The position numbers and the translations under genes are program-made. From positions 10,322-74,321 of IMG/VR virus record IMGVR_UViG_3300047557_002984: a stretch of DNA of 64,000 nt; one strand, 5' to 3'. The notes beneath the pieces are model-generated. The model ran no database searches. It had not been told where the DNA came from and was given only the letters and a program-made list of their open reading frames with translations. Shown here one piece after another: positions 5,451-25,783 of the stretch (positions within the stretch are counted from its first letter, which is position 1; each line of letters begins with the position of its first letter). This stretch comes from a virus.

Positions 5451-6716
5451 TTAGCCGTTTAATCGCTCTAGCAACTTGGCGGTCTTACCAGTCTCAGCCT
5501 CCCAGCGAGAGATGATCACATTCACGTATTTCGGCTCTACCTCGACAACGCGGGCTTTGCGGTTCGTGCGCTCGCAGGCAATAAGGGTCGTGCCGGAGCC
5601 GCCGAAGGGTTCAAATACTGTGTCGCCTAGTTCTGAGCTGTAACGAACTGCCCGTTCAACAAGTTCAACGGGCTTCATGGTTGGGTGCTCTTCTGAAACT
5701 CTTGGGCGAGGAATCTCCCACACATCATCTTTGTCTCTACCTGCGGAGTCTGAAAACGAGCTTTTACTTTTTGCGTGCCATCCGTACCAGATAGGCTCAT
5801 AGCGCCGGTGGTACTTACTGCGTCCAAGAACAAACTGATCTTTCACCCAGATCACGGTAGCCGACCAATGGAAGCCTTCAGCGCGAAGACAACTGTCAAG
5901 CGTTGGCCATTCAGATGCACCTAAGACGCAGTAAAGATCGCCCGTAAGATATTGAGCGAGTGGCCGCATAAAACCTTGAAGAAACGCTCGAAAGTCTTCA
6001 GGGGAAAGATCGTCATTTTCCAAGCCCTGTCTTTGCCTGTGCCTTGGATTTGAGTCTTTACCGATTGCTACGTTCCACGGTGGATCAGTAAAACACATCG
6101 TAGCTTTTCCATTTGCCATCACCCGCGCCACGTCTTCAGCCTTCGTGCTATCGCCACACAGCACTCGATGTTCGCCGCATTCCCACAAGTCCCCGTACTG
6201 CACTCGCGCTTGCAATTCTTCGGGTGTTACATCAAAATCGTCTCCACCATTTCCAGGTTTAATATCTTCTACCCGCGCCAAGCTCGCCAGTAATGCCTCA
6301 ATCTCATCTCGCTTATACAGCGAACTTACGTCAATCCCACTCTGCGTGTGTTCAAGCAGTATTTCCACGTCCGGCGAATAACCGACTTCCGACGCGCGAT
6401 TGTCCGCAATAGCCAATTGCCGGGCCTTGTCGCGCTCGGCTCCCTGGCCAAGCAACCGTAAGTCCGTGCGTTGGACGACAACCAATTCGCTGCCATCGGT
6501 TTCAATCACGCGCACGGGTAACTGGTGGTTGATTGCAACCTCCAGCGTCTTGTTGCCAGCAATCACGACCCCCTCGCTATCCGCCAGAATGCTTCGCCCC
6601 GCGCCTAGCTCGGTCAGCGACCAATCAATGACTTGCCGCCCGCGCTCCGTGCCCTTGTTCACATTAGCCGGATCAGCTTTCAGGTCGCCGACGCTTTGGA
6701 TTTTCTTCTTCGCCAC
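5451..6716 (-). CDS. ParB-like domain fused to N4/N6 DNA methyltransferase
   Basis: N-terminal GAGRSIL/IAGNKT/LAIADNR; MTase HRVLCGDST, TDPPWN, HPTMKP, FGGSGT. Confidence 0.88.
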   Translation of the reverse strand: MAKKKIQSVGDLKADPANVNKGTERGRQVIDWSLTELGAGRSILADSEGVVIAGNKTLEVAINHQLPVRVIETDGSELVVVQRTDLRLLGQGAERDKARQLAIADNRASEVGYSPDVEILLEHTQSGIDVSSLYKRDEIEALLASLARVEDIKPGNGGDDFDVTPEELQARVQYGDLWECGEHRVLCGDSTKAEDVARVMANGKATMCFTDPPWNVAIGKDSNPRHRQRQGLENDDLSPEDFRAFLQGFMRPLAQYLTGDLYCVLGASEWPTLDSCLRAEGFHWSATVIWVKDQFVLGRSKYHRRYEPIWYGWHAKSKSSFSDSAGRDKDDVWEIPRPRVSEEHPTMKPVELVERAVRYSSELGDTVFEPFGGSGTTLIACERTNRKARVVEVEPKYVNVIISRWEAETGKTAKLLERLNG

Positions 6717-10150: not shown

Positions 10151-10357
10151 TTAATTGTCTGCTGCGCGTTCGAGCGATTCAAGCCGCGCAGCTTCCTGCA
10201 ATAATTCGGATAATTGCTGCTCTGCTGCCCCAAGCGTGCGGCGGATGGAGTCAATCAGACGGCGCTGCTTGGCTGCTGACGCACGAATAACATCCGGCGT
10301 GATGTCTTGCCGGGAAATCCCTGCCAGCGACTTTACTAGCTTCGCTTGTTGAGCCAT
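10151..10357 (-). CDS. small coiled-coil leader protein
   Basis: Follows TATAAT near 10382-10387 and AGGTG RBS; precedes the terminator. Confidence 0.6.
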   Translation of the reverse strand: MAQQAKLVKSLAGISRQDITPDVIRASAAKQRRLIDSIRRTLGAAEQQLSELLQEAARLESLERAADN

Positions 10358-17178: not shown

Positions 17179-18045
17179 CTAATTTTTTGGGCCGACGGTA
17201 AAGTTTTGGCCGGGCGTGGTCTGGTTGCTCGGTTGCGGTGCTGGCGTGGCGAAACCAAGCGGTTGCGGGCGCTGTGGCGCTTGCGGGACGGGCTGAACTT
17301 CCTCCACGTCCGGCGTCCCGTTGTCGTCCCTGTCTACGTGCGGCTGTGCGGCACGAGCAAAGGCCATCGTGATTGCCAGCACCAGCGCAGCCAGGGAAGG
17401 CAAAAGCGCGTACATGCCGCCGTTGACGTACCAGTCAGGCAGGAAGGTGGACGGCTTTGTTTTTTCCGCCGTCTCCTTCAGAGATTCTTGCCCGCTCTGC
17501 ACAATGGTTTCGCCGATCTCCTTGCCTTGTCCCAAAGCACGCCGGGCGGTGTTGTGCTGCCCAACGCCGTTCAGCTTTTGCGCGACCTCGCCTGACGACG
17601 TAACCGCAGCCGTAACGCCCGCGCTTACAATCGCCGCTTGGCCCTCAGATACGCTTTTGAGCATCTGAACGCGCTCTTTGCTGGATGACTCATACTTCAG
17701 CACGGCCCCGGAATGTACGACCTCTGCAATCAGCAGCAGCCAGGACATCCAGAAGCACCAGTTGACCAGCCGGACAACCGTGGGGTGTGATCTGTGGACA
17801 CGGCGCGCGCCAATATCGTCCACGAACAATTCCCAGCAGGTCAGGATAAGCGCGACAGCGGGCAAGAGCAGAAGACCAGCCTTAGCCAAAAAGCCATAGG
17901 TGCCCTCTCCCATCACGCTTTCAATATGCGACCAAAGCACCGACGTGGTAGCCACGAGTGCCAGCGTGAAAAACGCAAACGTTGCAATCACGCGCTGATT
18001 GCGAAACGTCGTCACGCGATTCGGATTTTCAGATTGATTCACCAT
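17179..18045 (-). CDS. multi-pass membrane protein
   Basis: About four TM helices; DRDDNGTPD acidic loop; Pro/Gln tail. Confidence 0.75.
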   Translation of the reverse strand: MVNQSENPNRVTTFRNQRVIATFAFFTLALVATTSVLWSHIESVMGEGTYGFLAKAGLLLLPAVALILTCWELFVDDIGARRVHRSHPTVVRLVNWCFWMSWLLLIAEVVHSGAVLKYESSSKERVQMLKSVSEGQAAIVSAGVTAAVTSSGEVAQKLNGVGQHNTARRALGQGKEIGETIVQSGQESLKETAEKTKPSTFLPDWYVNGGMYALLPSLAALVLAITMAFARAAQPHVDRDDNGTPDVEEVQPVPQAPQRPQPLGFATPAPQPSNQTTPGQNFTVGPKN

Positions 18046-18113: not shown

Positions 18114-18189
18114 CCGCTGCAAAGCTGCGCTCCATCGCAGTTTATGGCTCCCGATAGCGCCTTGTAATCACTATCGGGAGCCGCAGCGG
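18114..18189 (+). ncRNA. putative C4-like antisense RNA
   Basis: CCGCTGC/GCAGCGG closing stem around two hairpins (one a perfect 12-bp stem), 5 nt after TTGCGG-N18-TACAAT. Confidence 0.45.
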
Positions 18190-18256
18190 TGATGATACAC
18201 CTTTTGCCAAATTCCCGAAAGATGCAAAAGGCCAGCCGAAGCCAGCCTTTCCATTC

Positions 18257-18487
18257 TCACTTTTTCTTTTTCTTCGGTTTCGGCCCTGAACCGGGCCGCG
18301 CCCCGCCGCGCTGTCTCGGTGGCAGGTCGAGCGCAAGGCGCACGATGTTCTGGTTGGTCAGCGCCGCGAAGGCGACATCATCCAGATCGGGCGCGTTTGC
18401 GCGTGCGCGCGGGCAGATGATGTCGCGCCATTCGGCGGCGGTGAAGCGGAGCTTCTCCACGATGATGGATTCTTTTAATGTTCCCAT
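18257..18487 (-). CDS. small DNA-binding protein with RGGARPGSG tail (Aca-like candidate)
   Basis: Beta-alpha-alpha-like N-terminus; RGGARPGSGPKPKKKKK; directly after the ring nuclease. Confidence 0.6.
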   Translation of the reverse strand: MGTLKESIIVEKLRFTAAEWRDIICPRARANAPDLDDVAFAALTNQNIVRLALDLPPRQRGGARPGSGPKPKKKKK

Positions 18488-18491
18488 TTGC

Positions 18492-19013
18492 TTAAATCAC
18501 AGCCACCCGCTCAATCCCCTTGGCGGTAAAGGTAAATTCCTCGCCGCCCGCAACCTGAACCTCTTTCCCTCCATCAGACGCGAAGCCAAGCAAGGGCTCT
18601 TGGCTTAACCTAGTATCAAGCAGGACAGGGCAACCATCTGCAAGATTTCGCGGCATATCTTGCGGCTTCCACCATCGAAGCGAAAACAGGTTGAATGTGA
18701 TGAGCGCGCCAAAGGTAAATCCAATGGCGTGGCACTCTTCTGCTGTTAGAATTTTGCCTTCGGGCGGTCGCCCGTTGAGCTTGAAGACAATCGCCACATC
18801 TCCAAGCCGCTGCTTATATTGAATGCGATTTACCGGAACATCTTGCCCTAGCAACTCAGAGAGAATCTGCGCTGTGGCATCGTGGCCGATGGCCGATGTC
18901 ACCGTGGCGCTTGGCTGATTTACCAGCCACTGCGCTTGTTGCAATGTCAGCGGGGCATAAACGGACGCCCCGTGCGTTGTCAGGATTGACGTGTTCAGTA
19001 ATGCGATGTTCAT
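18492..19013 (-). CDS. acrIII-1: DUF1874/YddF family viral ring nuclease (anti-CRISPR AcrIII-1) with C-terminal extension
   Basis: LLNTSILT, SAIGHDATAQILSELLG, PVNRI, GD.AIVFKLNGRPPEGKILT match the family including the GH motif. Confidence 0.88.
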   Translation of the reverse strand: MNIALLNTSILTTHGASVYAPLTLQQAQWLVNQPSATVTSAIGHDATAQILSELLGQDVPVNRIQYKQRLGDVAIVFKLNGRPPEGKILTAEECHAIGFTFGALITFNLFSLRWWKPQDMPRNLADGCPVLLDTRLSQEPLLGFASDGGKEVQVAGGEEFTFTAKGIERVAVI

Positions 19014-19051
19014 GATTCTCCTTTACTTCGCAGTATTACTTATGGGTTAAG

Positions 19052-19270
19052 TTACGCAGCAGGTGCTTTCTCTAAGCGCCAGACATTTCCGGGCACTTGC
19101 TGTCCGACCATGTCGGCGAGTAAAGCGGTGGCGTACACTACTGCTTCTTTTTGCCATTTACCACTAATGTTTAGAAATTCGCCTGTTTGAATGTTAACAA
19201 CGCAAAAGCCCTGCTTTTGCGTTTCTGGCACGTTCGTTAATGCGCCCCGACTCAGTTCGTCGTGATACAT
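19052..19270 (-). CDS. small protein upstream of AcrIII-1
   Basis: AAGGAG RBS; first gene after promoter. Confidence 0.7.
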   Translation of the reverse strand: MYHDELSRGALTNVPETQKQGFCVVNIQTGEFLNISGKWQKEAVVYATALLADMVGQQVPGNVWRLEKAPAA

Positions 19271-19341
19271 ACATTTCTCCTTGTTTTTTTACTGCGTCCT
19301 TGTTTCTCTCCGGCGACCCCATGCCGCCTTCGATGGTTTGC

Positions 19342-19369
19342 ATTATATTCAAAGTCGAACTTGAATCAA
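19342..19369 (-). promoter_or_regulatory. acr-operon promoter with inverted repeat
   Basis: TTGATT-N16-TATAAT; ATTCAA-N8-TTGAAT at 19347-19366. Confidence 0.75.
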
Positions 19370-19388
19370 GGGAAAAATGCGATTGCGC

Positions 19389-19422
19389 AAAAAAAAAAGA
19401 GCCAGCCCGAAGACTGGCCCTT
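19389..19422 (-). terminator. terminator after dnaN
   Basis: GGGCCAGTC-TTCG-GGCTGGCTC followed by a long T run. Confidence 0.8.
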
Positions 19423-19443: not shown

Positions 19444-20535
19444 TCACACCCGCATCGGCATCACCACTTGCCGCTGGCTCGGTTGCGCCCCTGCATCCGG
19501 CGCGCACAATTCAACCCGTGATCTCGCATCTTTCATCCGCAGAACCACATCGCCAGGGAAGCAGCCGAGCGCATCCAGAAAATATGTGGAATTGACCGCC
19601 AGCGCAATGTCCGGCCCAACATAAGCAACCGGCATTTCATCTGCACACTCGCCCGCGTCACTGGCTGCACTGATCGCTACGCGCCCATCGCTGAAATCCA
19701 GCTTGACCGTGCGGCTGCGTTCATCTGCCATCAGGCCCGCGCGGCGAATTGCAGCGGCAAGGTCTGCGGCGGCCATTGTGGCGTGGTGGTTGTTGTCTTT
19801 CGGCAAGACCAGTTCATAGTTCGGGAATTGCCCCGACAGCAACCGCGAGACAAGCAGGCGCTCTCCGGCGCGCACGAATAGCTGATTCTCGCTCACGGCA
19901 AGCTCAACGTTGCCGCCAATTAGGCGCTGCATTTCGCTCAACGCCTTGCGCGGGATGAGTACATCTAGCTTCGCATCGCCCGCACCCGGCAGCGGTTCTT
20001 CCGTGAACGCCAACCGGTGCCCATCGGTGGCCACCAAGCGCAGCACGCCGCCTGCGATTTCCATCTTGGCCCCGTTGAGCGTATAGCGGCTTTCTTCCAG
20101 CGTAATGGCAAACGCCACGCGCTCAATTTGCCGCGCCAATTGCGAACCTGGGATTGGCAAAAACTCGCCCGCCGGTTTGGCCACATCGGGGAAGTTCTCA
20201 GCAGCGAGGCTCAGCAGCTTAAACCGACTGCGGCCATACGTAACTTGGATGTGTTCGCCCGGATCGCCGCTAAACGTGATCTCTCCATCTGGCGCGTTCC
20301 TCACGACCTCACTGAGTTTCTTCGCGCTCAGGCAGCACGCGCCAGACACGTCCACGGCTGCCGCGCATAATGTTTGCAGCGTCACGTCCAGGTCGGTGCC
20401 GGTGATGCGTAACCATCCATCTTTCGCATCCAACAGCACGTTGGACAGAATTGGGATCGTGGGTTTGCGCTCCGTCACCCCTACCACAAGGGCAAGCTCT
20501 GCGAACAGAGCGGCTTTGCTAATGTTGAATTTCAA
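19444..20535 (-). CDS. dnaN: DNA polymerase III beta sliding clamp
   Basis: TIPILSNVLL, GTDLD, ESRYTLNG, VATDGHRL, GQFPNYE, VVMPMR; AAGGAGG before TTG. Confidence 0.95.
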   Translation of the reverse strand: MKFNISKAALFAELALVVGVTERKPTIPILSNVLLDAKDGWLRITGTDLDVTLQTLCAAAVDVSGACCLSAKKLSEVVRNAPDGEITFSGDPGEHIQVTYGRSRFKLLSLAAENFPDVAKPAGEFLPIPGSQLARQIERVAFAITLEESRYTLNGAKMEIAGGVLRLVATDGHRLAFTEEPLPGAGDAKLDVLIPRKALSEMQRLIGGNVELAVSENQLFVRAGERLLVSRLLSGQFPNYELVLPKDNNHHATMAAADLAAAIRRAGLMADERSRTVKLDFSDGRVAISAASDAGECADEMPVAYVGPDIALAVNSTYFLDALGCFPGDVVLRMKDARSRVELCAPDAGAQPSQRQVVMPMRV

Positions 20536-20699
20536 TCCGCCTCCTTCAGTGCCGCATCTGCAAATTGCATGCGGCAATCGCTACACGTTAATCGGTGCGT
20601 TTCCAGCCAGACTTGCCACGCGAGCGTGTTCGGTTTTGGCCAGATACGCGTTGAATTGCACCAGGGGCACGCGAAATAAAAGTTTTCAGGATTGGCCAT
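20532..20699 (-). CDS. 55-aa zinc-ribbon protein
   Basis: MANPENFYFACPWCNS...CSDC; coupled to dnaN; below track cutoff. Confidence 0.55.
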   Translation of the reverse strand: MANPENFYFACPWCNSTRIWPKPNTLAWQVWLETHRLTCSDCRMQFADAALKEAD

Positions 20700-23986: not shown

Positions 23987-24889
23987 CTAAAACTCCTGAC
24001 AGGCGCGCATAATCGCCCGCCCGATAACTTCCGCAACTTGCGGCACGATGGCGTTGCCGAGCGCCTTCAAAGAGGCCACTCGATGCCGTCGAGCCAGTCG
24101 CTCGGAAAGCCCTGCAGCTGACTCACCCACCGGTAATTTAACAATGCGCGGCTGCTCCCATTCGTATTGAGGCTGTCCGGGTCGGGCTGGCCATTGATAA
24201 CCACCGAAGCCGGAAGACAAGGCGACTTCCGCGCCTGCGCTGCGGGTTCCGTTCCGCTGTCTTTCCAGTCTCGCGTTGAGGGCGTCGGCCACAGCCGCGC
24301 AATTTGCGTTTCCAGATTCGGAAACCTGTTTGCCGCGTTCGCTATCGCATCGTCGGTTATTCCCGCTGCCATCGCGGAGCAATTTCGCGGAGTAGCCCAC
24401 GAAGAAAATTCGCTCTCTTCGCTGCGATGCGCCAACGTCTTCAGCAGCCAACTCGACGGGGAACAATTCGTAACCTCTAGCCGCAAACTCACGCGCAATC
24501 CATTCGCTGAATTGCATTCCTTCAACGCAAAGTGAAGTGATTCCGCCAGGATTCTCCGCCAACACCCACACGGGTTTGACTTCAGACACCAAGCGCAGAA
24601 AGTCAGGCCAGAGCCAGCGATGATCGGCGGCCCCTTTTCGCTTTCCGGCGACGCTGGCGGGCTGGCAGGGAACCCCGCCGCAAAGAAGGTCAACTGTTCC
24701 GCAGTGCTGGGCGACTTGAGCGCCCGTGAGCGTTTTGACATCATTCCACCTCCAAACATCTGGCCAATGCTTTGCTAATACTTTCTGGCAAAATGGCTCA
24801 ATTTCCACCTGGCCAACGCAACGCATTCCCGCGCGCTCAAGGCCAAGATCGAAGCCACCCACCCCCGCAAAGAGAGATAAAAACCTCAT
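23987..24889 (-). CDS. DNA (cytosine-5) methyltransferase, alpha chain
   Basis: LFAGVGG, GGVPCQ, ENP, QRRERIF, LKALGNAIVP; no motif IX. Confidence 0.9.
   Translation of the reverse strand: MRFLSLFAGVGGFDLGLERAGMRCVGQVEIEPFCQKVLAKHWPDVWRWNDVKTLTGAQVAQHCGTVDLLCGGVPCQPASVAGKRKGAADHRWLWPDFLRLVSEVKPVWVLAENPGGITSLCVEGMQFSEWIAREFAARGYELFPVELAAEDVGASQRRERIFFVGYSAKLLRDGSGNNRRCDSERGKQVSESGNANCAAVADALNARLERQRNGTRSAGAEVALSSGFGGYQWPARPGQPQYEWEQPRIVKLPVGESAAGLSERLARRHRVASLKALGNAIVPQVAEVIGRAIMRACQEF
24067..24744 (-). CDS. nested alternative-frame beta chain of the C5 methyltransferase
   Basis: Internal GGAGGT RBS; WATP/WPTP repeats; LNYRWVSQLQGFPSDW is motif IX-like. Confidence 0.75.
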   Translation of the reverse strand: MMSKRSRALKSPSTAEQLTFFAAGFPASPPASPESEKGPPIIAGSGLTFCAWCLKSNPCGCWRRILAESLHFALKECNSANGLRVSLRLEVTNCSPSSWLLKTLAHRSEESEFSSWATPRNCSAMAAGITDDAIANAANRFPNLETQIARLWPTPSTRDWKDSGTEPAAQARKSPCLPASVVINGQPDPDSLNTNGSSRALLNYRWVSQLQGFPSDWLDGIEWPL

Positions 24890-24893
24890 ACGC

Positions 24894-25163
24894 CTAAAAC
24901 TCCGGTTGCCAGAACGTGCGCTCAACCGCGCGGCTGTCCGTGCCGCCATCGCCCGCGCTGGTGAATGCCGCTTGCTGCGCTTCGGTCAATTGCCGATTAC
25001 TGGTGCGCTTTTGGCCCTTCTTGGCTGCCAGCGTCGCCAGCGTGCGCGGCTGCTTGCCCATCCGTTTGCGCATCATTGTCGTGAAATTGCGCGTTTCGCG
25101 GATCGTGGCATCGAAGGCCACGAGCACAGGATCATTGCTTAAATCAAGTTTCTTTCTTGCCAT
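24894..25163 (-). CDS. hypothetical basic protein
   Basis: GGAGG RBS. Confidence 0.6.
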   Translation of the reverse strand: MARKKLDLSNDPVLVAFDATIRETRNFTTMMRKRMGKQPRTLATLAAKKGQKRTSNRQLTEAQQAAFTSAGDGGTDSRAVERTFWQPEF

Positions 25164-25165
25164 CG

Positions 25166-25783
25166 TTATCTTGCCTCCCGTGCGGGCGTTGGCCCGCTTT
25201 GCGTGTTGTATCGCCCCGTCACAGTGTAATCGTTCAACGGCGGCGCAGCCATTCGCACCAGTTGCATTTGCATCACGCGCTGACCTGCTTCCAGCTTGAT
25301 CGGCCACGGCGCAACGTTTTGAAATTCAAACGTCCACTGCGCGCCTTCGGGCGTGGCCAGCCCAAAGCCCGGATCGCCCAACCCCGCGTGCAAGTGCTCC
25401 AGTCCTCTGCGGCCCGTGCTGCTCTTGCTATAGAGCAGGGCAGTGACATCGCGCGGGATGCGGACAAATTCAAGCGAATGGCAAAGCACGAACTCACCCG
25501 GTAGCAGGTAGTAAGTGCTAAATTCCCGCGCATCTTCCCAAAGATCATCCGGGCCAAGCGACCACCTATTGCCTACATCGTGCCCCTCTGTTTCCAGTTG
25601 AAACCGCGCCACACTCAGCCGCTCCGGTGTGTAAACCTCTCCCCACCAGCGACGCGGGCGGCGGATCAGATTGCCCAGGCGCAAATCAATGCTGGCCGGA
25701 TTGATCAGCGCGGGATCGTATGGCGTCACAAGCGGCGCGTCCCCTTCGCACAGTGCTTTGATTTGTTCGTCGTTCAGGATCAA
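25166..25783 (-). CDS. dcd: dCTP deaminase (trimeric dUTPase fold)
   Basis: INPASIDLRLG, PGEFVL, KSSTGRRGL, AG..DPGF, TFEF.N, GRY..Q. Confidence 0.88.
   Translation of the reverse strand: MILNDEQIKALCEGDAPLVTPYDPALINPASIDLRLGNLIRRPRRWWGEVYTPERLSVARFQLETEGHDVGNRWSLGPDDLWEDAREFSTYYLLPGEFVLCHSLEFVRIPRDVTALLYSKSSTGRRGLEHLHAGLGDPGFGLATPEGAQWTFEFQNVAPWPIKLEAGQRVMQMQLVRMAAPPLNDYTVTGRYNTQSGPTPAREAR

Follow-up and report, generated by a model that had tools for sequence, protein, structure and literature searches.

Is the short operon on the minus strand of a metagenomic phage an anti-CRISPR (Acr) cassette that carries its own Aca-type (anti-CRISPR-associated) repressor, and which element would such a repressor bind? 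The operon lies at positions 18,257 to 19,422 of a 64,000-nt stretch of DNA, in the following called the window, which corresponds to positions 10,322 to 74,321 of the IMG/VR virus record IMGVR_UViG_3300047557_002984, a 74-kb record estimated to be 74% complete. It encodes a 72-aa protein (orf72), a 173-aa DUF1874 protein of the AcrIII-1 ring nuclease family and a 76-aa protein (orf76). An original prediction, made from the sequence of the window alone, had read orf76 as a new Aca that represses the operon through an inverted repeat in the promoter. Based on a comparison with related loci, we lean towards a reading of the locus as an exchangeable accessory (anti-defence) cassette slot of the acr-aca kind, bracketed by terminators and with orf76 as an Aca-type repressor. 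The Aca role of orf76, considered by itself, is an almost balanced call that we place slightly on the negative side, and the promoter repeat is probably not its target.

A terminator-bracketed operon with exchangeable cargo and promoters

Every element that the original prediction had named was found in its place, all on the minus strand. The features of the operon are the following:

19397-19422, minus strand: intrinsic terminator upstream of the operon, which ends the sliding clamp gene dnaN and forms the left insulator (11-bp stem, UUCG loop, 10-T run)
19342-19369, minus strand: sigma-70-like promoter TTGATT-16-TATAAT, matching the consensus at 10 of 12 positions
19347-19352 and 19361-19366, no strand assigned: perfect inverted repeat ATTCAA-N8-TTGAAT with 6-bp arms, which spans the promoter spacer and abuts the -10 element with its right arm
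19303-19337, minus strand: core of the transcript leader, about 31 nt (about +1 to +33), the only non-coding block kept in all variants and the left border of the cargo exchange
19052-19270, minus strand: orf72, 72 aa, first cargo gene, a small ORFan with two relatives only
18492-19013, minus strand: gene of the 173-aa DUF1874 protein, second cargo gene
18690-19013, minus strand: AcrIII-1/Crn2 domain (DUF1874, PF08960), residues 1-108, assigned by Pfam, fold and active-site residues
18495-18689, minus strand: C-terminal extension, residues ~109-173, a predicted five-stranded small beta-barrel of the SH3/Tudor/Sm type
18257-18487, minus strand: orf76, 76 aa, conserved last gene and candidate regulator, with a predicted ribbon-helix-helix (RHH)-like dimer core and a basic RGGARPGSGPKPKKKKK tail
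18226-18251, minus strand: terminator-like stem-loop after orf76, the right insulator, followed by UUUUGCAUCUUU

The predicted insulation of the operon is borne out by the flanking terminators on both sides and by a promoter of its own. The upstream terminator, which is kept in the related loci L003 and L004, has a folding energy of -20.6 kcal/mol (z -3.7), which none of 200 shuffles matched, and the stem-loop downstream of orf76, which is identical in L002, L003 and L004, is weaker (-19.6 kcal/mol, z -1.7). The promoter scan was not significant by itself, with 2 sites in the region versus 1.1 expected; we judge the promoter to be real because of its placement between a terminator and a ribosome-binding site (RBS) with an open reading frame (ORF). 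In L003 and L004 the promoter is the same as in the window except for the -10 element, which reads TATAGT instead of TATAAT. From the ratios of non-synonymous to synonymous differences (pN/pS) against metagenome relatives, which amount to 0.12 for orf72 (versus L002), 0.18 for the DUF1874 gene and 0.25 for orf76, we conclude that all three are real coding genes under purifying selection. The operon is also covered by contigs from RNA libraries, which as such show neither transcription nor the start or end of a transcript.

The comparison of this locus with three metagenome contigs (L002, L003 and L004) and with contigs of four runs aligned to the stretch revealed that the cargo genes are exchanged. 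L003 and L004 are the same as the window in dnaN, the terminator, the promoter, the leader, which is identical, the orf76 homologue (86% identical) and a downstream gene for a four-transmembrane (four-TM) protein. Between leader and orf76, however, they carry one 151-aa ORFan that replaces orf72 and the DUF1874 gene. This ORFan belongs to no Pfam or PHROG family and has no match in the PDB or among phages, and IMG/VR scans with the 151-aa cargo and with dnaN returned nothing. L002 differs in its upstream backbone, which lacks dnaN, and contains an extra small ORF followed by orf72, the DUF1874 gene and an orf76 that is identical to that of the window. Upstream of orf72, its positions 140-441 comprise a near-consensus promoter (TTGACA-17-TATAGT), a homologous leader and the extra ORFan of 69-80 aa, and the stop of orf72 overlaps the start of the DUF1874 gene. 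The homology of the two leaders is reflected in a local score of 30, compared with 16±2.3 and a maximum of 25 for shuffles, and in a hairpin that is located at the same place in both. In the window this hairpin has 6 bp and lies at 19312-19328 (GGCGGC-AUGGG-GUCGCC). The leader, and likewise orf76, is present as a single copy in the 74-kb record, and a scan of IMG/VR with the exact leader core identified no further locus.

Contigs from three runs of two studies break away exactly at the borders 19303-19307, 19013/19017 and 19335-19346. At 19303-19307, just after the leader, three further continuations were found, two of them with a fresh RBS and ATG. At 19013/19017, a hairpin and an RBS are located in place of orf72 before the DUF1874 gene, which means that orf72 is separable from the nuclease gene, and at 19335-19337 and 19346 the -35 element and the spacer are swapped for unrelated sequence. 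In contigs of the runs X15, X16 and X11, homology to the window extends only from about 19303/19307 to 19335/19337, i.e. essentially over the 31-33 nt with which the predicted transcript begins. From L002 to L004 and the contig breaks we conclude that the leader core and orf76 are the conserved pieces of the locus and that promoter and cargo are exchangeable. In contigs of these runs, the leader follows three or more other promoter sequences, each of which has a short inverted repeat abutting the -10 element, and it looks as if promoter-operator modules were exchanged as well as cargo.

The original prediction had also proposed orf72 as an anti-defence gene. What stands of this claim is that orf72 is a conserved gene of the operon; beyond this guilt by association, neither a family nor a fold gives a lead. 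Searches in Pfam and PHROGs were without result, matches to PDB sequences remained at E ≥0.24, and Atlas pointed to unnamed viral clusters only (0.87). Accordingly, orf72 is an anti-defence candidate by position only.

The second cargo gene encodes a long-form AcrIII-1 ring nuclease

The assignment of the 173-aa protein to the AcrIII-1/Crn2 family is secure. A search of the protein against the profile of DUF1874, a check that had been suggested together with the original prediction, matched residues 3-100 to PF08960 (STIV_B116-like) with 88.5 bits (cut-off 26; 89.7 bits when the genome was searched), and the protein can be aligned with SIRV1 gp29, AFV3-109, STIV B116 and the Crn2 part of Csx1-Crn2. 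In the aligned pairs, H44, T47, R63 and R82 correspond to H47, T50, R66 and R85 of SIRV1 gp29, which are the general acid and the contacts to cyclic tetra-adenylate (cA4) (bioRxiv 10.1101/778746). Among 41 aligned relatives H44, R63 and R82 are invariant, and each of the four positions is either invariant or at least 90% conserved. The AlphaFold model, which was built on the same alignment, reached a predicted local distance difference test (pLDDT) value of 91.8. Over residues 1-108 it matches solved family members, which according to VIA-align include AFV3-109 (2j6c; Z 15.4, root-mean-square deviation 2.8, 104 aligned residues), Csx1-Crn2 (8y7f; Z 14.8) and STIV B116 (2j85; Z 14.3), and Foldseek retrieved SIRV1 gp29 with bound cA4 (6scf) with a probability of 1.0. 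Sequence, predicted fold and active-site residues agree on the AcrIII-1 assignment, and from this family membership the protein would be expected to cleave cA4 and to have an anti-CRISPR effect.

The C-terminal extension is modelled confidently, and its structural matches are only generic ones to small barrels of the SH3/Tudor/Sm type (Z 4-5.3); a match in Pfam or PHROGs was not obtained. The extension is common to only 6 of the 651 relatives (P0011-P0016; 52-92% identical), the rest being about 105-115 aa long, and the only gene that the IMG/VR scan for the long form identified was of the short form and came from an unrelated phage (L007). As judged from the model, the predicted C-terminal barrel gives the DUF1874 family a new domain architecture.

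When the DUF1874 gene (18492-19013) is compared with its counterpart in L002 (814-1335), all 14 differences are located in the first 210 nt and the remainder is identical. In the same comparison orf76 shows no difference, and the divergence of orf72 is much higher (pS 0.56). This distribution points to a putative recombination breakpoint inside the nuclease gene.

orf76 is a predicted RHH-like dimer with a basic tail

The start of orf76 is located 4 nt past the stop of the DUF1874 gene, and the terminator follows. Seven close relatives, which align at 72-89% identity, share an invariant EKLRF segment and an invariant QRGGARP...GPKP.KK tail. A profile search against 1.84 billion representatives retrieved only 16 proteins at E ≤0.001, of which 11 are small and follow a common pattern consisting of an N-terminal strand-like KITNLxFT, a helix, LTPQNVLRLALG and then RxRGGARxGxG. 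Scans of IMG/VR returned nothing for the close family and, for the wider family, one locus each time (L006 and L009), and tblastn against cultured phages gave no match. A hit among genome contigs, L008, was rejected as a false positive that sits inside a malate dehydrogenase gene. One of the relatives shows a weak Pfam match to the NikA-like family (RHH; E 0.028).

The prediction of an orf76 homodimer passed its controls, with a mark of 0.49 compared to 0.02 for the best control. Of 30 proteins that have been solved as one-chain pairs, 20 reach this mark, compared with 1 of 23 single-chain structures; these counts hold only roughly for orf76, since an alignment of our own was used. The homodimer runs agreed in at least 94% of the contacts, with a partner pLDDT of at least 69. 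The contacts with the lowest error are 8-15, 9-14, 10-13 and 13-13 as well as 49-49 and 53-53; residues 8-16 of both copies run antiparallel to each other, and helix 45-58 packs against itself. For the monomer fold, Foldseek reported nothing at E <5, and the best VIA-align match had a Z of 2.5; in Atlas, orf76 scored 0.78 at most. The monomer model shows no helix past residue 52, and its last 20 residues have a pLDDT of about 51-53 in a tail that is rich in Gly, Pro and Lys. We read the predicted homodimer contacts as an RHH arrangement, according to which orf76 would most likely be an RHH-like dimer with a flexible basic tail.

A model of the cassette and alternative explanations

According to the reading that we lean towards, transcription would start from a host-type promoter and proceed through the conserved leader of about 31 nt with its hairpin into variable cargo, in this case orf72 and the long-form AcrIII-1 ring nuclease, and finally into the conserved last gene orf76. 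The nuclease dimer would cleave cA4, the signal that type III CRISPR systems make on sensing phage RNA, so that cA4-dependent effectors stay off. The predicted RHH-like dimer of orf76, with its basic tail of a minor-groove type, could act as a feedback repressor of the cassette, for which the leader, either as DNA just past the start site or as RNA, would be the target rather than the repeat in the promoter spacer. For the Aca-type role that the original prediction had assigned to orf76, the support is indirect and comprises its conservation as last gene next to swapped cargo and the RHH-like homodimer prediction.

A number of findings weigh against this reading, and we consider them here along with the explanations that might take its place. 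orf76 has no match in Pfam, PHROGs or PDB sequences, whether searched as a single protein or as a profile, and its monomer model is all-helical (pLDDT 72), residues 3-12 included. With respect to the target, the exact model of the original prediction, in which orf76 as an Aca autorepresses the operon via ATTCAA-N8-TTGAAT between the -35 and -10 elements, appears unlikely to us. The repeat spans the spacer, abuts the -10 element with its right arm, and occurs only once in the window; the repeat bound by Aca14 likewise overlaps the -10 element (PMC13551039). L003 and L004 keep both arms with one base of the spacer being different, and only about 2.6-2.8% of the 28-nt stretches of the window contain such a repeat. 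Its occurrence at the promoter is modestly unlikely by chance, which is suggestive and no more. On the other side, the arms have just 6 bp, and the repeat is gone from L002 despite the identical orf76, since a search of the 590 nt upstream that tolerated up to 3 mismatches did not detect it. Moreover, contigs that share the leader carry different repeats in their replaced promoters, as read from the loose-end consensus of these contigs, namely TACACG-N11-CGTGTA in X15 and X16 (arms kept, spacer different) and CTGCA-N2-TGCAG in X11. Because the close family shows no variation in the predicted DNA-reading strand with its EKLRF residues, recognition of such varied promoter repeats by orf76 is unlikely, and the repeats more probably serve other regulators of phage or host. 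It is the leader core that is co-conserved with orf76 instead of the operator repeat, and should orf76 regulate the cassette, the leader core, as DNA past the start site or as RNA, would on the basis of this conservation be a better candidate target than the spacer repeat. Such a target fits the observation that Aca1 and Aca2 also bind elements in the 5' untranslated region (UTR) (PMC13551039). Read from its conservation alone, however, the leader could equally be a hairpin that stabilises the mRNA or a recombination flank.

A different explanation, which we regard as possible and clearly the less probable one, is that orf76 is a conserved backbone DNA-binding protein with another job, e.g. 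an accessory role in packaging or replication, late regulation or assistance in recombination. In that case the cargo slot would just happen to lie upstream of it, and the locus would be an ordinary moron hot spot with no dedicated autoregulator. In the provirus L009 (3995-7368), an 88-aa distant relative of orf76 is located directly before a terminase small subunit (phrog_6299), which is followed by a 619-aa ORF read as a candidate terminase large subunit. In L006 (2495-5102), a complete 35-kb phage with terminal repeats, another distant relative is the last of eight small genes on the same strand and faces a tyrosine integrase. A DUF1874 gene is present in neither of the two records. The original prediction had suggested a search for homologues of orf76 beside other known acr genes, and none were seen: the distant relatives adjoin ORFans, an integrase and a terminase, and no known Acr was identified among the neighbours in L003, L004, L006 and L009 by general Pfam and PHROG scans, which are not Acr-specific and assigned a family only to the terminase small subunit. 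A backbone protein would also be in line with a promoter repeat that is not co-conserved with orf76 and with the flanks of L003 and L004, which represent the same phage backbone on both sides, so that the conservation of orf76 may be plain synteny. This explanation is, however, at odds with L002, in which leader, cargo and orf76 occur together in spite of a different upstream backbone, and with the position of orf76, which is always the last gene of the operon just before the terminator and abuts or overlaps a cargo gene (4-nt gap in the window, 25-nt overlap in L003). In L006, the relative again ends a run of ORFans, the seven genes before it being without Pfam or PHROG family. With regard to the nuclease, it is conceivable, though in our view improbable, that the DUF1874 protein, although its fold is that of a true cA4 nuclease, has a main role other than anti-CRISPR, such as the binding of a host protein via the barrel, comparable to SIRV2 gp37, which inhibits a host lysine methyltransferase, or the clearing of cA4 from another source. 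In line with this, the AcrIII-1 homologue SIRV2 gp37 was found to lack anti-CRISPR activity during native infection because its expression falls in the middle/late stage (bioRxiv 10.1101/2023.01.10.523387; PMC11065993), and the AcrIII-1 genes of archaeal viruses are rarely tied to early promoters (PMC11065993). The protein also carries the added C-terminal domain with its generic structural matches, and an anti-CRISPR role would presuppose a type III system that signals by cA4 in the host. This is opposed by the active-site and cA4-contact residues, which are fully kept, by the location of the gene in an insulated operon that has a host-type promoter of its own, and not inside a late operon, and by YddF and the protein of phage THSA-485A, homologues from the bacterial side that cleave cA4 or block cA4 immunity (bioRxiv 10.1101/778746).

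The cassette slot with orf76 as an Aca-type repressor could be taken further, to a version that we put forward only tentatively and consider rather doubtful as a whole. Here, the leader and orf76 would constitute a portable "expression bracket", and orf76 would found a new Aca family (RHH-like core, AT-hook-like RGGARPG...KKKK tail) that acts on the leader, with promoters and cargo being swapped around this fixed pair of regulator and target. orf72, the 151-aa ORFan and the other cargos at the contig ends would then be new anti-defence genes, and the barrel-bearing AcrIII-1 would be functionally extended.

Relation to known ring nucleases and acr-aca loci

The occurrence of AcrIII-1 homologues in bacteriophages and in integrative and conjugative elements is established (bioRxiv 10.1101/778746). 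With the AcrIII-1/DUF1874 proteins, which include SIRV1 gp29, STIV B116, AFV3-109, YddF of ICEBs1 from B. subtilis and the protein of phage THSA-485A, the window protein shares the Pfam family, the fold and the dimer-type core, as well as the catalytic His, the Arg/Thr contacts to cA4 and the carriage on mobile elements. It differs from typical members by its length of 173 aa versus about 105-115 aa and by the extra C-terminal barrel, which occurs in six relatives only, and its gene, together with that of a candidate regulator, occupies a dedicated operon bounded by promoter and terminator. The same ring-nuclease fold is found in Crn2 of Csx1-Crn2 from Marinitoga (PDB 8y7f, 8y7g; Z 14.5-14.8 over 108 residues). 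Crn2, however, belongs to the host side and is fused to a CARF effector in a self-limiting manner, whereas the nuclease of the window comes from a phage and has an unrelated small barrel as its fusion partner.

By analogy, the closest precedent of the cassette is Aca14, an RHH-type Aca, with the csx20 ring-nuclease operon that it represses (PMC13551039, NAR 2026). Going by the description of Aca14, orf76 is likewise a small, non-helix-turn-helix (non-HTH), dimeric regulator candidate (the dimer being predicted for orf76), encoded by the final gene of an operon that includes a cA4 ring nuclease, and an inverted repeat is found at the -10 element in both operons. By the same description, orf76 differs in that it matches no Pfam RHH model and has a disordered basic tail instead of a long helical extension, and its partner nuclease is DUF1874 rather than Csx20.

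The classic acr-aca arrangement has variable cargo genes ahead of a conserved regulator. Like such loci in phages of Pseudomonas and in other phages, the cassette has its variable cargo between a conserved promoter region and a small conserved last gene, at a fixed genomic place. In contrast to these loci, the conserved non-coding element is the transcript leader and not a promoter repeat, none of the cargo besides DUF1874 is a known Acr, and the candidate regulator is not of the HTH type. New here are the long-form nuclease, a candidate regulator family without detectable sequence relation to known DNA-binding families, a leader that is flanked by variable promoters and cargo, and an AcrIII-1 gene with its own host-type promoter.

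The native anti-CRISPR action of AcrIII-1 homologues is disputed and hinges on the timing and manner of their expression (bioRxiv 10.1101/2023.01.10.523387; PMC11065993). A host-type promoter of its own together with a candidate feedback regulator is the arrangement that would be expected of a true early anti-defence gene, and the locus thus bears on this dispute. If orf76 proves to be a regulator, it would be a new bait, outside the HTH class, with which environmental phages could be searched for anti-defence genes, and the variable slot would offer several candidates. The conservation of a leader between variable promoters and variable cargo is unusual, and it fits an Aca action on 5' UTR elements (PMC13551039).

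Genomic setting and further observations

The source of the stretch is an uncultured tailed phage from freshwater or wastewater, in which the cassette slot is located within the replication module. The surrounding minus-strand block (about 300-31,500) encodes scaffold, portal, terminase, DNA methyltransferases, dCTP deaminase, primase/helicase, replication initiator and sliding clamp. The nearest cultured phages, with a portal identity below 31%, have various Proteobacteria as hosts, and a blastn search of the operon DNA against cultured phages gave no match. The stretch itself is present in freshwater and wastewater metagenomes from ten studies. Next to the operon and elsewhere in the window, the following features were observed:

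19444-20577, minus strand: dnaN (sliding clamp), directly upstream of the left terminator of the operon
18142-18182, minus strand: 14-bp hairpin GGCUCCCGAUAGUG...CGCUAUCGGGAGCC
17179-18045, minus strand: gene of a 288-aa protein with multiple hydrophobic segments (four-TM), downstream of the operon
5451-6716, minus strand: ParB-domain DNA methyltransferase
23987-24949, minus strand: C5-type DNA methyltransferase
25166-25783, minus strand: dCTP deaminase

The four-TM protein, which belongs to no family, is kept in L004. The hairpin, which sits between the terminator of orf76 and the four-TM gene and is kept in L002, folds with -27.4 kcal/mol (z -6.0, with 0 of 200 shuffles as good); a search of Rfam, which included the hairpin area, returned nothing near the gathering score. 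Further counter-defence or DNA-modification functions are possible for the ParB-domain and C5-type methyltransferases and the dCTP deaminase.

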